Assembly (NCBI GenBank): GCA_030390025.1
Contig: JASTWF010000332.1
Span: 372,001 to 436,000 of the forward strand
Length of the DNA: 64,000 nucleotides
From: Squalus acanthias
Lineage: Eukaryota
Direction: 5' to 3'
The first letter of the stretch is position 1, and each line of letters starts with the position of its first letter. A program made the translations under genes and the position numbers. Below the pieces are notes generated by a model. That model was not told where the DNA came from. It was given only the letters and a program-made list of their open reading frames with translations, and searched no databases. Shown one piece after another: positions 31,189 through 61,942 of the stretch.

Positions 31189-32096
31189 ATTCTTAAGGCA
31201 GAGCTGAGGCAGCTTCACTTTTCAGCTGGCTACACTGTGCCTGACCTGGCAGTGCTCAGTACTGATATTGGGTCCTCCAATGGGAAGACCTCCCATACCT
31301 TGCTTCGATAAGTTATTGTTTTGCTTTCCCTGTGTACAACAGTGCCCCGCTGTATTGCACCCCCACAGTAAATATTGTTTCATCACAGGCAGCTGAATGT
31401 TATATTTTATTATGAAAACCTAGATGAAAGGACAAGGCCCATAGTGCAGAACACCACCAATTTTGGAAATTCAGGTTTAATGTCAGATCATACCAAGGCT
31501 AAAGATAAATTAAGGTTTCGTGCTCGGTGATACAAAGCTGATATTTTAAAATCTTCTGGATTGCAGGAAGACTGAAGGAGATAAGGAGTTCCACAATTTT
31601 GAGTATCTGGGAACGATTGACGAAAATAAAAGAAAGATGTGGTGAATCTTGATTTCAACACAGTGAAGATGCAGGGAGGAGGAAGTGTGTAGGATGGTGT
31701 ATTTGGAGAAAAAGTTCACTGAGGCAATAACCACTGTAGTATTGATAAAATAGAGAAAGGACAGAACGATTGTGACAGGGGGTGCAAAAGGCAGAAAAGA
31801 TTGGACTGGAGGCTCTCAGGATATCTCTGCTGTTCAGAATGTAATAACCATGAGAAATTATACAACTGAGTATAATTGTATAATTGCTAAACAAAAGGAA
31901 ACTGATATTTCTACTACTGAGAGCATTTCCTTGGCAAATCATCATATAAAACATTTTGAAGAAATCAATGCTCGTCATTTCTGATCTGGTGCAACAATGT
32001 TGCAGTTATCAGATGGTTAAATGAACATGCTTAATATACTGTGATCGTTACAGTTTTTGTCATTAAGAACTTCACATGTCCCTTATAAAGGTTCAC

Positions 32097-59200: not shown

Positions 59201-61942
59201 ATAGATTATGAAAGTAAATTAGCAAAAAATATAAAAACAGATAGTAAGAGTTTTTATAGTTATATAAAAAGAAAAAGGGTGGCTAAAGTAAATGTTGGTC
59301 CCTTAGAGGATGAGACCGGGAAATTAATGGTGGGAAATATGGAGATGGCAAAAACACTGAATGAATATTTTGTATCAGTCTTTACAGTAGAGGACACTAA
59401 GAATATCCCAACACTGGACAAACAGGGGGCTATAGGGGGAGAGGAGCTAAACACGATCAAAATCACTAAGGAAGTGGTACTCGGTAAAATAATGGGACTC
59501 AAGGCGGATAAATCACCTGGACCTGATGGCTTACATCCTAGAGTCTTGAAGGAAGTGGCGGTAGGGATTGTAGATGCATTGGTAATAATTTTTCAAAACT
59601 CCCTGGATTCCGCTAAGGTCCCGGCAGACTGGAAAACTGCTAATGTAACACCCTTATTTAAAAAGGGCAGTAGACAGAAGGCTGGTAACTATAGACCGGT
59701 TAGCCTAACATCTGTGGTAGGTAAAATTTTGGAGTCCATTATTAAGGAAACAGTAACAGGACATTTGGATAATCATAATTTAATAGGACAAAGTCAGCAT
59801 GGTTTTACGAAGGGGAAGTCATGTTTGACAAATTTGCTGGAGTTCTTTGAGGAAGTAACATATAGAGTGGATAAAGGGGAACCAGTGGACGTAGTGTATT
59901 TAGACTTCCAAAAGGCATTTGACAAGGTGCCACACAAAAGATTATTGCTTAAGGTAAAAAATCACGGAATTGGGGGTAATATTCTGGCATGGATAGAGGA
60001 TTGGCTATCTAACAGAAAGCAAAGAGTTGGGATAAATGGTTCATTCTCAGACTGGCAATCAGTAACTAGTGGTGTTCCACAGGGGTCAGTGCTGGGTCCC
60101 CAACTCTTCACAATCTATATTAACGATTTGGAGGAAGGGACCAAGTGTAACATATCAAAATTTGCAGATGATACAAAGATGGGAGGGAAAGTAGTGAATG
60201 AGGAGGACATAAAAAACCTGCAAGGGGACATAGACCGGCTAAGTAAGTGGGCAGAGATTTGGCAGATGGAATACAACACTGGAAAGTGTGAGGTGATGCA
60301 CTTTGGCAGGAAAAATCCTAGAGCAATTTATTATCTTAATGGCAAGAAACTGGAGAGTACTGAAGTGCAAAGGGATCTGGGGGTCCTGGTGCACGAAACT
60401 CAAAAGGTTAGTATGCAGGTGCAGCAAGTGATTAAGAAGGCAAATGGAATGTTGGCTTTCATTGCTAGGGGGATAGAATATAAAAATAGGGAGGTATTGC
60501 TTCAGTTGTACAAGGTATTGGTGAGACCGCACCTGGAATACTGCATACAGTTTTGGTGTCCTTACTTAAGGAAAGACATCCTTGCTCTCGAGGCAGTGCA
60601 AAAAAGGTTCATTCGGTTAATCCCGGGGATGAGGGGGTGGTCATATGAGGAGAGGTTGGGTAGATTGGGACTCTACTCATTGGAGTTCAGAAGAATGAGA
60701 GGCGATCTTATTGAAACATATAAGATTGTGAAGGGGTTGGATCGGGTGGATGCGGGGAGGATGTTCCCGATGACGGGTGAGACGAGAACTAGGGGACATA
60801 GTCTTAGAATAAGGGGCTGCTCTTTCAAAACTGAGATGAGGAGGAACTACTTCACTCAGAGGGTGGTAGGTCCATGGAATATGCTGCCACAAAAAGCTGT
60901 AGAAGCTACAACATTAATTAAATTTAAAACAGAAATAGACAGTTTCCTAGAAGTAAAGGGCATTAAGGGTTACGGGGAGCGGGCAGGAATTTGGACATGA
61001 GTCTAGGTTCGGATCGGTCATGGCCCTGTGGGTAGTGGAGCGGGCCCAGGGACTGTGTAGCCTGATTCTGCTCCTATTTCGTGTGTGCAATTCTGTTAGA
61101 TGCAGGAGATGGTTCTGTGATAGATAGTAGATTGGCGGTTAGGATCAGATCAGCCATGATCTTATTGAATGGCGGAGCAGGCTCGAGGGGCCGATTGGCC
61201 TACTCCTGCTCCTATTTCTTATGTTCTTATGTTCTTATGTTCTTTCACCTATAAGAACGAAACGGATGTCCAAATGGAGCTGAGTGCAGGTGATGTGTAA
61301 AATCTGCCGCTGTTCATTTGTTTGCAAAAATAACCAGCTTCCAGAGACTGAAAATTGCTGCGTGCAAAGAAAAATAAACCTTGGAAAAGTATAGTCATAG
61401 ATTAGATTATGTGTGTGTCCCAAAGGATCCTGACTCCATTTCTAGAAGCTTACCTTTGATGAATCCTGTAAAATCTGGTGTATAAGGCACTCCTGTGTAT
61501 TTAGAGGTGAAAATCTGTTGTGACTTGGATCCAGCATATAAACGGAAAGTTTACTAATTCAGTATAAAATAATCACGTTTTATTTTGACTTGTATGTTAA
61601 GTTTTGCACAAGTAGTACAGCAAACTGTATTTAAGGATAAAAAATATTTTTGCAAATATAGTATATTTTTTCATCTACAGTGTAAAAGTTGGAATGTTTG
61701 ATGCGGATCACGTTTCATTGATCACACTAAATTTATTTCTACTAAAAAGATATTTTAGATGCAATACAATCCAAATTTGTATCATTTGCATGTTTTTCCC
61801 AGAACCAAGCTCTACCTAATTGCAACCCTTAATAATGTTGCTTTCTTTATTAGGTAGTGAGAAACTCACAGCGAACATTGGAACACATGGATACCTGGCT
61901 CCAGAAGTTAGAACAAACCAGCACAAGGCCATGTACAACTCG
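32097..61942 (+). CDS. Divergent eIF2-alpha kinase, GCN2/EIF2AK4-like (multi-exon gene span; 3' end beyond window)
   Basis: Eight exons (32097-32207, 44394-44697, 46991-47112, 49576-49638, 49913-50038, 56613-56714, 61256-61289, 61854-61942) join in frame over 951 nt with GT-AG introns; kinase subdomains I-VIII plus the eIF2a-kinase insert are present. Confidence 0.85.
32714..35749 (-). mobile_element. Long degenerate CR1-clade LINE (lineage B; APE endonuclease + RT)
   Basis: APE ORF 34700-35512 ([30 protein letters not shown]); RT fragments ([11 protein letters not shown]); A-rich tail near 32716. Confidence 0.92.
35752..36478 (+). mobile_element. CR1 LINE 3' fragment
   Basis: [29 protein letters not shown]; tail TTCTATGATTCTATG. 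Confidence 0.9.
37345..40397 (+). mobile_element. CR1 LINE (37345-37909 + 39985-40397) split by another CR1
   Basis: RT reading [17 protein letters not shown] resumes after the insert; same subfamily as 3005-4126. Confidence 0.85.
37910..39984 (+). mobile_element. 5'-truncated CR1 LINE nested in a CR1
   Basis: ORFs 38225-38884, 38971-39216, 39481-39894; (TTCTTATG) tail; GTTGT repeated at both junctions. Confidence 0.93.
40412..40634. mobile_element. Palindromic Penelope-like insertion (family A)
   Basis: Near-perfect palindrome 40449-40634; 13-bp TSD TTAACCTTTACAA; same termini as 18632-18849. Confidence 0.75.
40648..41200 (+). mobile_element. CR1 LINE 3' fragment
   Basis: [28 protein letters not shown]; 3' UTR. 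Confidence 0.88.
41786..43345 (-). mobile_element. 5'-truncated CR1 LINE (RT)
   Basis: ORFs 42608-43318 and 41884-42648 with all RT motifs (FADD); AAACATAGAAACATAG tail. Confidence 0.94.
43565..43680 (-). mobile_element. SINE tRNA-derived head fragment
   Basis: TGGAGTGGGACTTGAGCCCACGACCTTCT, the reverse complement of the SINE box B region. Confidence 0.6.
44394..44697 (+). CDS. GCN2-like kinase exon (subdomains II-IV and start of kinase insert)
   Basis: cttttccttAG acceptor; [14 protein letters not shown]...[24 protein letters not shown]...[18 protein letters not shown]...; donor AAG|GTCTAT is weak, but its phase 1 matches the next exon. Confidence 0.88.
44762..45050 (+). mobile_element. 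Deu-domain SINE 3' portion
   Basis: Family core and tail just downstream of the kinase exon. Confidence 0.75.
45557..46256. mobile_element. GC-rich Harbinger-like MITE
   Basis: Starts GGGGGAGATTTTCAAC; internal TTAAATATGCAAAT motif shared with the 36743 and 62945 elements; right TIR degenerate. Confidence 0.55.
46991..47112 (+). CDS. GCN2-like kinase exon (kinase insert)
   Basis: gttttttcAG acceptor, phase 1 start, (D)[40 protein letters not shown], consensus GCA|GTAAGT donor, phase 0. Confidence 0.75.
47215..47775 (+). mobile_element. CR1 LINE 3' fragment
   Basis: Degenerate RT C-terminus and 3' UTR motif GATGGGCCGAATGGCCTCCTTCT. Confidence 0.88.
48523..49225. mobile_element. PIF/Harbinger non-autonomous element (703 bp)
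   Basis: TIR GGGGGGAAAATTGG / CCGAATTTTTCCCCC with TTA TSD at 48520-48522 and 49226-49228; very GC-rich. Confidence 0.8.
49576..49638 (+). CDS. GCN2-like kinase exon (end of insert, LFIK)
   Basis: tcttattctaccAG acceptor; [30 protein letters not shown] donor. Joined to the next exon it gives LFIKMDFC, equivalent to the L(Y/F)IQME(Y/F)C motif. Confidence 0.85.
49913..50038 (+). CDS. GCN2-like kinase exon (hinge to subdomain VIa)
   Basis: ttc[56 protein letters not shown] donor. Confidence 0.88.
50411..52770 (-). mobile_element. L2 LINE, 5'-truncated
   Basis: [14 protein letters not shown]...[29 protein letters not shown]...[13 protein letters not shown]; (TTG)n tail at 50411. Confidence 0.93.
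52775..55449 (-). mobile_element. Old CR1 lineage-B fragment (52775-53170 + 54915-55449) interrupted by a CR1
   Basis: Diverged similarity to the 32930-34010 region on both sides of the insert. Confidence 0.7.
53183..54910 (-). mobile_element. Degenerate CR1 LINE
   Basis: ORF fragments [11 protein letters not shown]...[13 protein letters not shown]; 3' UTR at about 53183-53250. Confidence 0.9.
56018..56450 (+). mobile_element. Full-length tRNA-derived Deu-domain SINE
   Basis: TGGCTCAATGGTAGC box A, GAGTTCGAGCC box B, core and tail. Confidence 0.78.
56613..56714 (+). CDS. GCN2-like kinase exon (catalytic loop and DFG)
   Basis: [34 protein letters not shown] between an AG acceptor and a CAG|GTAATG donor. 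Confidence 0.92.
57622..61242 (+). mobile_element. Young, near-intact CR1 LINE: ORF1 C-terminus (SGNH esterase) + ORF2 (APE + RT)
   Basis: 57622-58011 VVHVGTNDI...DGLHL; ORF2 58050-61000 broken only at an A7 run (59005-59011); (TTCTTATG)n tail; TTTCA direct repeat at 57617-57621 and 61243-61247. Confidence 0.96.
61256..61289 (+). CDS. GCN2-like kinase 34-nt activation-loop exon
   Basis: ctttcacctataAG|AAC...[11 protein letters not shown]+G, CAG|GTGATG donor; the best candidate found that converts phase 0 (56714) to phase 1 (61854). Confidence 0.7.
61854..61942 (+). CDS. GCN2-like kinase exon (activation segment, APE)
   Basis: ctttctttattAG acceptor, phase 1; (G)[38 protein letters not shown] donor. 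Confidence 0.9.

Follow-up and report, generated by a model that had tools for sequence, protein, structure and literature searches.

Canonical GCN2 (EIF2AK4; structure 8t7t) has a long kinase insert between strands beta-4 and beta-5 that carries an ..AP..SVEW.. motif, an activation loop with two threonines, and a HisRS-like domain after the kinase. PKZ of teleosts, as described in PMC7137213 and PMC6447671, is a precedent for a fish-lineage-specific eIF2-alpha kinase paralog with an altered regulatory part – it is derived from PKR and gained Z-DNA-binding domains. According to its description in PMC11305385 (Sci Adv 2024), PKR-sis of cartilaginous fishes is a lineage-restricted extra eIF2-alpha kinase that has no dsRNA-binding domains and lacks its parent family's sensor domain; it phosphorylates Ser51 in yeast only if dimerised through GST.

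The GCN2-like gene described here, from a 64,000-nucleotide stretch of Squalus acanthias DNA (the window), resembles each of these in part. It shares with the genome's own canonical GCN2, as with 8t7t, the insert and its motif, both threonines and the HisRS-like domain, but only 26% of 839 aligned residues are identical to canonical GCN2, the RWD, pseudokinase and C-terminal domains are absent, the locus is separate, and the gene was found in elasmobranchs only. As a lineage-restricted putative eIF2-alpha kinase whose parent family has a sensor domain that it lacks, it parallels PKR-sis; as described, however, PKR-sis is the sister of PKR rather than GCN2, has other motifs and lacks a HisRS-like domain. 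In contrast to PKZ, this paralog is derived from GCN2 and lost domains. No paper on it was found in the literature.

The window carries the 5' third of the gene on the + strand, exons 1–8, encoding the kinase from the N-lobe to the activation loop. Splicing with the ortholog P0001 as guide gives a model of eight GT-AG exons between 32097 and 61942, with a total of 951 nt, which aligns to residues 1–332 of P0001; its 317 stop-free codons reproduce exactly the count given in the initial annotation, and all seven of the kinase motifs of at least five residues listed there were found on the + strand. Exon 1 (32097–32207, 111 nt, ending in phase 0 with a GT donor next to it) codes for the N-terminus plus the GQGGFS glycine loop (32178–32195), and terminates in IVYK (32196). 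An in-frame ATG upstream, at 32076, may be the true start codon. The frame is open from 32067, and the ortholog of Cetorhinus (P0003) begins with a homologous 7-residue extension at the position equivalent to this ATG, so the coding part of exon 1 possibly extends over 32076–32096. Exon 2 (44394–44697, 304 nt), which opens with VFRS (44394), supplies the YAVK lysine and the alpha-C glutamate, and the kinase insert begins in it, including the AAAPPP..SVEW motif (18 residues, 44625–44678); YAVK and TEV are both readable in the frame of this exon, and its product is 72–90% identical to nine elasmobranch proteins. The acidic, serine-rich portion of the insert, with TDSESSI at 46993–47013, is in exon 3 (46991–47112, 122 nt). 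Exon 4 (49576–49638, 63 nt) completes the insert, adds strand beta-5 and terminates in LFIK (49627), a tetrapeptide with one extra chance match in the window, at 16380. Exon 5 (49913–50038, 126 nt) runs from MDFC (49913) to IHSQ (50027) through the hinge and helices alpha-D and alpha-E. Exon 6 (56613–56714, 102 nt) has the HRDLKPGN catalytic loop and the DFG motif (KIGDFGL, 56673–56693), and the 10-residue motif listed initially is at 56622–56651; the exon matches the Pfam Pkinase family with an E value of 3.7e-12 (46.7 bits). Exon 8 (61854–61942, 89 nt) encodes the activation loop LTANIGT (61865–61885) with both threonines, as had been noted initially, then YLAPE (61892–61906), and terminates in MYNS (61931). 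The first part of intron 8 occupies 61943–64000, and the gene continues past the window end.

Exon 7 has an uncertain acceptor, because a copy of an interspersed repeat (60701–61237) abuts it, ending 4 nt short of the part of the exon that is still conserved. The repeat sits where the ancestral acceptor and the first ca. 6 ortholog codons would be, and no remnant of those codons was found upstream of it. The element or parts of it have 16 further matches in 124 kb (74–96% identity), and the bin 60676–61342 has very high contig depth. The short form of the exon, which encodes a variable activation-segment insert, is at 61256–61289 (+ strand, 34 nt, acceptor AG 61254–61255), while an alternative in-frame acceptor at 61181, within the repeat, gives a 109-nt exon with 25 more codons. 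Replacement of the ancestral 5' end by the repeat therefore leaves the activation segment either 11 residues shorter or 14 longer than those of the orthologs. Skipping the 34-nt exon would disrupt the reading frame.

A hint of expression comes from contigs of 1604, 677, 427 and 287 nt, from four runs in two studies. Their sole alignment to the locus is at 44392–44695, in exon 2, with 0–2 differences, and the remainder of each does not align there. The 2-nt shift at both ends of the alignment fits the AG in which exons 1 and 2 both end. That these contigs derive from RNA is a guess; no run recorded as RNA contains the stretch.

The complete gene has 23 exons on the same contig, with an intact frame of 878 codons, a single terminal stop and GT-AG borders at all 22 introns. 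Exons 9–23 (G000:C2584:437354–490351, + strand) lie 1.35–54.4 kb past the window end; the exons for subdomains IX–XI and beyond, whose state the initial annotation had marked for checking, are thus present and open. The gene is single-copy: in a search of the genome, 20 of 48 matches fall at C2584:404097–490348 and cover residues 1–893, and the other 28 are weak kinase matches of at most 41.6 bits. This contig is an unplaced scaffold of 532 kb. It also has a PID-domain exon 234 kb upstream, the sole lead for a NOS1AP neighbourhood. Canonical EIF2AK4 is separate, at G000:C1:97233929–97364119, where 24 of 29 matches cover residues 1–1636 of the catshark GCN2, with 65–92% identity per exon, and with 84% for a model spliced from residue 560 as far as the stop. 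The catshark too has both genes (P0166, P0242). The proposal that the gene is not the EIF2AK4 ortholog was therefore borne out.

As first proposed, the gene arose from GCN2 by DNA-level duplication; the duplicate is a partial one. Its descent is indicated by the HisRS-like domain, an insert motif found only in GCN2, shared introns and the best structural match. Eleven of the 22 introns are at the same alignment column and in the same phase as in the genome's own canonical GCN2, five more are within 1–3 columns in the same phase, and exon order is colinear. The junction parallels suggested from human GCN2 hold within this genome – the introns at the ends of exons 1, 4, 5 and 8 correspond in column and phase to canonical AVIK|VKNT, LYIQ|MEYC, IHEQ|GMIH and TYNQ|KVDL. 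The motif AP[PSA]P..S[VI][ED]W was found in 28 of 393 fetched proteins, namely the paralog, vertebrate GCN2 and four unnamed proteins. A profile of ten orthologs compared with the PDB matched human GCN2 best (chain 8t7t, E 5.2e-87), and the top ten matches were all GCN2; profile positions 30–664 align to 8t7t residues 593–1236, and 679–818 to 1294–1435. In this alignment the insert motif corresponds column for column, and TDSESSI falls on the acidic serine stretch of GCN2, both as claimed in the initial annotation. Isolated kinase domains scored 149 bits for GCN2, 120 for HRI, 113 for PERK and 108 for PKR.

An unrooted kinase-domain tree puts the clade inside none of the four families, PKR, HRI and PERK included; it attaches at the node that separates GCN2 from the other three, and this tree alone cannot demonstrate GCN2 affinity. 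In sequence trees the clade does not group with vertebrate GCN2; it joins beside the fungal outgroup, a placement that carries a long-branch warning. Constraining it to vertebrate GCN2 cost 4.74 log-likelihood units (p-AU 0.065), so that this position was only just not rejected.

The protein of ca. 880–915 amino acids is made up of a kinase and a HisRS-like domain. The duplicated copy starts with the first exon of the kinase domain and extends little past the HisRS-like domain, where a short basic tail (43 residues, 15 of them K or R) stands in place of the GCN2 C-terminal domain. Invariant across 48 GCN2 and GCN2-like sequences are (P0001 numbering) G28, G30, K50, E68, H250-R251-D252, N257, D270-F271-G272, T313, E320, T351 and R355; the paralog retains the catalytic residues, both activation-loop threonines and a T-x-x-E-R stretch, which we take to be helix alpha-G. 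Pfam HisRS was below threshold in two of four orthologs (19.1 and 23.5 bits, cut-off 25) and undetected in the other two. With an AlphaFold model (mean pLDDT 68.3, pTM 0.43), the best Foldseek matches listed were HisRS-like domains of GCN2 (8t7t, E 1.1e-22; 9f58; 9bf3; 9c9q) and HisRS, a fold match that is not independent of canonical GCN2 because the alignment given to AlphaFold included its rows. The C-terminal half is predicted to share the class II fold and symmetric dimer of HisRS (human 4g85, E. coli 1htt), at 12–19% identity in the Foldseek alignments. The tRNA-binding m2 pair, F-R in GCN2, is F-L in the paralog, with leucine in ten of ten orthologs, and motif 3, GGRYD in GCN2, is GGQYT. 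As the conserved motif 2 and 3 arginines are replaced, aminoacylation chemistry would not be expected, and the paralog has probably lost or altered the canonical way of sensing uncharged tRNA. Two copies of residues 480–850 gave a dimer score of 0.39, compared to 0.13 for the best of three controls, a pass that may merely reproduce the HisRS and GCN2 dimers already solved. Of the proteins solved as same-chain pairs, 21 of 30 attained the mark for this score, and of those solved as single chains, none of 23 did; the figure for eukaryotes was 17 of 29, with just one of the seven that lack an older solved relative. Prediction runs agreed in at least 68% of contacts, with partner pLDDT of at least 72.

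Full-length orthologs, 77–91% identical, come from 12 shark and ray species besides the window species, as RefSeq and UniRef entries that bear the name 'eIF-2-alpha kinase GCN2-like'; Stegostoma and S. torazame are represented through cluster members. Among 120 matches listed (of 1142 at E ≤ 1e-5), the best ten are elasmobranch 'GCN2-like' proteins with 1202–2064 bits, and the 11th drops to 229 bits. Among 1.84 billion representatives, just one match exceeded 273 bits. Protein searches, including these representatives, found no ortholog outside elasmobranchs and none from chimaera, so the initial attribution to cartilaginous fish stands for sharks and rays and was narrowed to elasmobranchs. 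Conservation of the paralog is highest in the kinase lobes, where mean column identity across sharks and one ray is 91–94% (92% in the N-terminal HisRS-like part). Divergence is concentrated on the stem branch of the clade, which is very long, 3.68–4.16 changes per site, and living elasmobranch paralogs evolve about as slowly as GCN2 – between the window species and S. torazame, identity is 81.1% in the paralog and 84.4% in canonical GCN2. The description 'fast-evolving' therefore fits the stem branch and not the gene now.

Descent from another lineage and identity with GCN2 itself were both weighed. That the gene is PKR-sis or a relative from the PKR lineage is very improbable. PKR-sis is, as described, a cartilaginous-fish eIF2-alpha kinase without dsRNA-binding domains, and the clade lies inside no family in the unrooted tree, both of which would fit; however, the glycine-loop row of scPKR-sis (XP_038664788.1) in the supplement of PMC11305385, FGSVYEVKHKI, differs from the 11 residues of the paralog, and the catshark accessions of the GCN2-like gene (XP_038650840-42, GCB73756) occur 0 times in that supplement. 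These observations refute a PKR identity, together with the HisRS-like domain, the insert motif, the intron positions and the profile scores, in which PKR structures are lowest of the four kinases. The name 'GCN2-like' given by NCBI could suggest a divergent EIF2AK4 that is the only GCN2 of the genome, a reading with almost no probability left and refuted by the complete canonical locus on contig C1; the catshark likewise has both genes.

The remaining alternatives concern function. A decaying duplicate or an annotation artefact, at least in the window genome, is improbable: the repeat in exon 7, the unplaced scaffold and the lack of the stretch in any run recorded as RNA are consistent with it, but the 23-exon frame and its splice sites are intact, exon 7 still has in-frame acceptors, 12 other species have full-length orthologs, the evolutionary rate equals that of GCN2, and contigs in four runs end at the borders of exon 2. 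It is less easily dismissed, though on balance unlikely, that an expressed, conserved protein does not act as an eIF2-alpha kinase in vivo, and modulates canonical GCN2 (for example by pairing with it via the HisRS-like or the kinase domain) or acts on another substrate. The HisRS-like domain that forms the dimer in solved GCN2 structures is kept and predicted to self-dimerise (with the reservation given above), the input domains and the m2 arginine are lost, and the long stem branch fits a changed function. Against an active kinase, RWD, pseudokinase and C-terminal domains are needed for GCN2 activation in yeast; a fragment of kinase and HisRS-like domain could lack activity or be constitutively off. 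On the other hand, the catalytic residues, both threonines and the T-x-x-E-R stretch common to all 38 GCN2 rows are kept, which would be needless for a pure scaffold, and the kinase lobes are the best conserved parts.

The reading we consider reasonably likely is that the gene is an intact, partial GCN2 duplicate of elasmobranchs encoding an active kinase. Judging from its sequence, the paralog would phosphorylate eIF2-alpha at Ser51 as a further integrated-stress-response kinase, and would dimerise via its HisRS-like domain. Its input would differ from that of GCN2: with the RWD domain absent, it would not be coupled to GCN1, and it lacks the C-terminal domain for ribosome binding and dimerisation. 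Sharks and rays thus probably carry an additional, unstudied stress-response kinase.

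Eight colinear tblastn matches in the window cover residues 1–332 of the closest ortholog, an 893-residue protein of Pristiophorus japonicus (P0001, whose residue numbers are used here). A junction search limited to GT..AG introns and an open frame placed the exons, all on the + strand, at 32097–32207 (exon 1), 44394–44697 (exon 2), 46991–47112 (exon 3), 49576–49638 (exon 4), 49913–50038 (exon 5), 56613–56714 (exon 6), 61256–61289 (exon 7, with an uncertain acceptor) and 61854–61942 (exon 8). Their lengths total 951 nt, the 317 codons that the initial annotation had reported, and the motifs it quoted were all located on the + strand where it had placed them. 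Scanned singly against Pfam, exon 6 matches the protein kinase domain above the cut-off (E 3.7e-12), exon 2 scores below it (28.0 bits vs 31.7) and exon 5 matches weakly, while exons 1, 3 and 8 gave nothing relevant. An in-frame ATG at 32076 may be the true start of the gene, and the Cetorhinus ortholog begins with an extension homologous to the stretch after this ATG.

Using 60 kb past the end of the window, the gene was extended to 23 exons, with all 22 introns GT-AG and a frame of 878 codons that has a single stop, at its end. The downstream exons (kinase subdomains IX–XI onward), on whose state the initial annotation had made its proposal depend, are present and open. With P0001 as query, 20 of the 48 matches in this genome fall on C2584:404097–490348, on the contig whose positions 372001–436000 are the window, and span residues 1–893; the other 28 are weak matches to other kinases.

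This gene is not the only GCN2 of its genome. The canonical GCN2 of catshark (P0166) locates a complete canonical EIF2AK4 locus on a separate contig, at C1:97233929–97364119, where 24 of its 29 matches span residues 1–1636. As EIF2AK4 sits there, the gene in the window is not the EIF2AK4 ortholog of its genome but a paralog, and canonical GCN2 is the closest known gene to it.

Several lines of evidence point to descent from GCN2. A profile of ten orthologs compared with all PDB sequences matched human GCN2 (8t7t) at E 5.2e-87, in two stretches – profile positions 30–664 aligned with residues 593–1236, from the kinase domain into the HisRS-like domain, and positions 679–818 with residues 1294–1435. 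All of the top ten PDB matches were GCN2. Among isolated kinase domains, GCN2 scored 149 bits against the profile, HRI 120, PERK 113 and PKR 108. An AlphaFold model (mean pLDDT 68.3; kinase lobes and residues 490–850 mostly 70–93) had as its best matches, among those listed by Foldseek, the HisRS-like domains of GCN2 (8t7t at E 1.1e-22; 9f58, 9bf3 and 9c9q), followed by HisRS proper; the model was built from a 48-row alignment that included canonical GCN2 rows, and the fold match is thus not independent of the profile match. The profile alignment and Foldseek place a HisRS-like domain C-terminal to the kinase domain, as in GCN2, and Pfam tRNA-synt_His appeared only below threshold, in two of the four orthologs scanned.

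The long insert between beta-4 and beta-5 of the kinase domain carries a motif (..AP..SVEW..) that aligns with human GCN2. It is present in 10 of 11 paralog rows, the exception being a Narcine protein whose N-terminus is incomplete, and in 14 of the 22 GCN2 rows; a looser form, S-[VIL]-[EDQ]-W, is found in bilaterian GCN2. None of 15 rows of PKR, HRI and PERK kinase domains has the motif, even in the looser form. Among 393 proteins fetched, 28 contain the AP[PSA]P form, and these comprise the paralog and vertebrate GCN2 along with four unnamed proteins.

Introns were compared in a joint alignment with a spliced model of EIF2AK4 from the same genome, from residue 560 to the stop. Half of the paralog introns (11 of 22) are at the same column and in the same phase as canonical introns, and five more are in the same phase, 1–3 columns away. 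The remainder are located in the insert, which aligns poorly, in the central part of the HisRS-like domain or in the tail. Because these introns match those of canonical EIF2AK4, the gene was copied at the DNA level, and an origin by retroposition is ruled out.

A kinase-domain tree was built by a quick search (44 rows, 429 columns, unrooted), leaving out P0010, which is partial, and P0031 and P0026, which have tandem kinase domains. The paralogs group together with 100% support, their stem being 3.68 changes per site long, and their clade branches from the node that separates GCN2 from the PKR/HRI/PERK group. The tree is unrooted and so shows only that the clade falls inside none of the four families; a sister relationship with GCN2 was considered and rejected as a reading of it. 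A second, GCN2-only tree covered the kinase and HisRS-like regions in 26 rows and 1057 columns; in it, the paralog stem is 4.16 changes per site and the clade adjoins the fungal outgroup, a position flagged as a meeting of long branches. Forcing the paralog together with vertebrate GCN2, the one constraint covered by the AU test, cost 4.74 log-likelihood units and was narrowly not rejected (p-AU 0.065). Given the restricted distribution, the introns shared with GCN2 and the insert motif in its APPP form, an origin within vertebrates is the better reading, and the elasmobranch stem would be the most economical date for the duplication.

An additional eIF2-alpha kinase, PKR-sis, a sister of PKR, has already been published for cartilaginous fishes (PMC11305385). 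The paralog is neither PKR nor PKR-sis. The dsRNA-binding domain that marks the PKR family (PF00035) is absent from all four orthologs scanned with Pfam, the accession differs from that of PKR-sis (XP_038664788.1), and the row for the glycine loop is different. Three S. canicula and four S. torazame accessions are given in the supplement table of PMC11305385, and none of them is a catshark accession of the paralog.

Database searches found the gene in sharks and rays. With exon 2 as query, 9 proteins of 118 candidates matched at E<=0.001; all were from sharks or a sawfish, were 72–90% identical and were named 'eIF-2-alpha kinase GCN2-like'. With a whole ortholog as query, the best ten matches listed (1202–2064 bits) were from Pristiophorus, Cetorhinus, Heterodontus, Mustelus, Rhincodon, Scyliorhinus, Chiloscyllium, Pristis, Heptranchias and Narcine, and the 11th, an insect GCN2, fell to 229 bits. 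Orthologs from Stegostoma tigrinum and Scyliorhinus torazame were added from cluster members. Among 1.84 billion representatives, one scored 1509 bits and no other exceeded 273 bits, in a search in which a relative more than 50% identical would be hidden inside the same cluster. No ortholog from a chimaera, bony fish or cyclostome was found in the protein databases. The paralog is already in RefSeq, solely as an automatic 'GCN2-like' prediction. A full-text literature search, with most subscription journals outside its reach, returned no paper on a shark GCN2 paralog, and an earlier published description is conceivable.

The paralog shares the marks of GCN2 descent but lacks several parts of canonical GCN2. 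Its protein starts about 20 residues ahead of the glycine loop and has one kinase domain, at the N-terminus, with no pseudokinase domain upstream; canonical rows have a second, upstream HSP that paralog rows do not. The RWD domain (PF05773), which binds GCN1, was found in none of the four orthologs scanned with Pfam, and it is given for most canonical GCN2 matches. In canonical GCN2, the C-terminal domain functions in ribosome binding and dimerisation. The alignment of the paralog with the GCN2 of its own genome stops about 170 residues short of the GCN2 C-terminus, leaving this domain without a counterpart, and the paralog ends in a basic 43-residue tail with 15 K/R that is modelled as disordered (pLDDT <50 at 860–893). 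Within the HisRS-like domain, human F1144-R1145, which we take to be the 'm2' pair in motif 2 for binding uncharged tRNA, aligns with F566-L567, and F-L is invariant in all ten orthologs. The motif-3 GGRYD of GCN2 is GGQYT in the paralog.

The kinase domain appears competent. The catalytic Lys (K50), alpha-C Glu (E68), HRD (H250-D252), catalytic Asn (N257), DFG (D270-G272), second activation-loop Thr (T313) and APE Glu (E320) are invariant across 48 rows of GCN2 and GCN2-like proteins, and the intact catalytic residues and activation-loop threonines are those expected of an eIF2-alpha kinase. In a T-x-x-E-R stretch that aligns with human GCN2, T351 and R355 are invariant in the same 48 rows and E354 is conserved in at least 90% of them; this stretch is presumably helix alpha-G, which docks eIF2-alpha, by analogy with the PKR literature.

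Two copies of residues 480–850 were predicted to form a symmetric dimer, with a score of 0.39 compared with 0.13 for the best of three controls, although this is a measure of likeness rather than of binding because HisRS and GCN2 dimers have already been solved. The runs had at least 68% contact agreement and a partner pLDDT of at least 72. Of 30 proteins solved as pairs of one chain, 21 reached the mark used for a dimer, and of 23 solved as single chains none did; for eukaryotes the figure was 17 of 29, but only 1 of the 7 lacking an older solved relative.

From its sequence and the predicted structures, the paralog is on balance probably an active eIF2-alpha kinase. It would dimerise through the HisRS-like domain and phosphorylate eIF2-alpha, with an input different from that of GCN2 – GCN1, ribosomes and uncharged tRNA would no longer be used. 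The main rival reading, which we regard as unlikely, is that the protein modulates GCN2 or acts as a kinase on some new substrate; the missing domains and the replaced arginine would fit it, and the retained catalytic core and T-x-x-E-R stretch speak against it.

Among nine sharks and a sawfish, column identity of the paralog is 91–94% in the kinase lobes; the linker and the beginning of the HisRS-like domain both reach 92%, the kinase insert 71% and the tail 74%. For the pair formed by this genome and S. torazame, identity is 81.1% for the paralog and 84.4% for canonical GCN2 counted from residue 560, and within the HisRS-like region 84% and 83%, respectively. The description of the gene as fast-evolving does not hold for the present day, since its identity is near that of GCN2 for the same species pair and the change sits on the stem.

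Expression was sought in public sequencing runs. Among the runs listed as containing the searched 6.1-kb stretch of the paralog, none is on record as RNA. Eight presumed-RNA runs share 7–10% of the sampled words of this stretch, of which exons make up 10%. In four presumed-RNA runs, contigs of 1604, 677, 427 and 287 nt align solely to 44392–44695, with 0–2 differences. This is exon 2 moved 2 nt at both ends, a shift to be expected if the AG at the ends of exons 1 and 2, which is ambiguous, is counted with the downstream piece, and it fits spliced transcripts. Among the joints listed for these four runs, in a table swamped by intron repeats, there was no exon-exon joint of the paralog, and in bin depths the exons were not separable from the introns.

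Exon 7 has been affected by a repeat. An interspersed repeat copy at 60701–61237, with 16 further whole or partial matches in 124 kb at 74–96% identity, ends 4 nt ahead of the conserved part of the exon, and in its bin the contig depth exceeds 56,000 in the presumed-RNA runs. The first exon 7 codons of the orthologs are missing from this genome. There are two candidate in-frame acceptors, 61256 and 61181; use of the AG at 61181, inside the repeat, could exonise 75 nt of repeat sequence, and skipping the 34-nt exon breaks the frame. Intronic repeat segments at 44668–45334, 47336–48002, 50004–51337 and 60676–61342, the last of them the bin of this copy, have a summed contig depth of 10,000–95,000 in all four presumed-RNA runs. 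This would mean, if the runs are indeed RNA, that the repeat families are heavily transcribed at some place in the genome.

The 32 kb upstream of the gene contain 100 open frames of at least 70 aa, two of which have Pfam matches, both transposon-related. Fragments of a non-LTR retrotransposon are found at 29164–30494 (+) and 3376–3831 (-), with an RVT_1 match at 29164–29616 (E 1.8e-18) and a clearly related C-terminal stretch, without a Pfam match, in the open frames 29697–30494 (+) and 3376–3831 (-). A fragment of a Harbinger-type transposase (DDE_Tnp_4, E 1.7e-8) is at 23305–23550 (-). On the + strand, GC skew is strongly positive at 28001–42000, 50001–54000 and 56001–62000, reaching 0.38 in 2-kb windows; no tandem repeat scoring 100 or more was found in 28000–64000, and the orientation of interspersed repeats is probably the cause of the skew. 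The initial annotation had mentioned a neighbouring NOS1AP, and no NOS1AP-like sequence was seen in the window, including 1–32000. A PID/PTB-domain exon at G000:C2584:137843–137962 (-), 31.5 bits, lies on the 532-kb scaffold of the window, 234 kb further upstream, and it might belong to that gene.

Each lineage-specific addition to the eIF2-alpha kinases, such as PKZ or PKR-sis, has been informative about the exchange of sensor domains on a single kinase module. The paralog would be the first such addition derived from GCN2, and a natural 'minimal GCN2' – only kinase and HisRS-like domains, apparently maintained by purifying selection. This makes it relevant to an unsettled question of the field, the part of the HisRS-like domain in kinase control without GCN1, the pseudokinase and the C-terminal domain. 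More tentatively, and less likely than not, the elasmobranch integrated stress response may use a GCN2-derived kinase uncoupled from GCN1, ribosomes and uncharged tRNA, in which a highly conserved HisRS-like domain (92% column identity), remodelled by replacement of the arginines of motifs 2 and 3, responds to another ligand or partner. Such a kinase would go back to a partial duplication in the elasmobranch stem, with a burst of change at first and constraint for the roughly 300 million years since. Vertebrates have four eIF2-alpha kinases, according to PMC5025754. The paralog, its kinase function being putative, is of real interest to the stress-response field: a catshark with both it and PKR-sis would have at least six eIF2-alpha kinase genes, and if the proposal is true the two would bring the number of eIF2-alpha kinases in sharks and rays to six.
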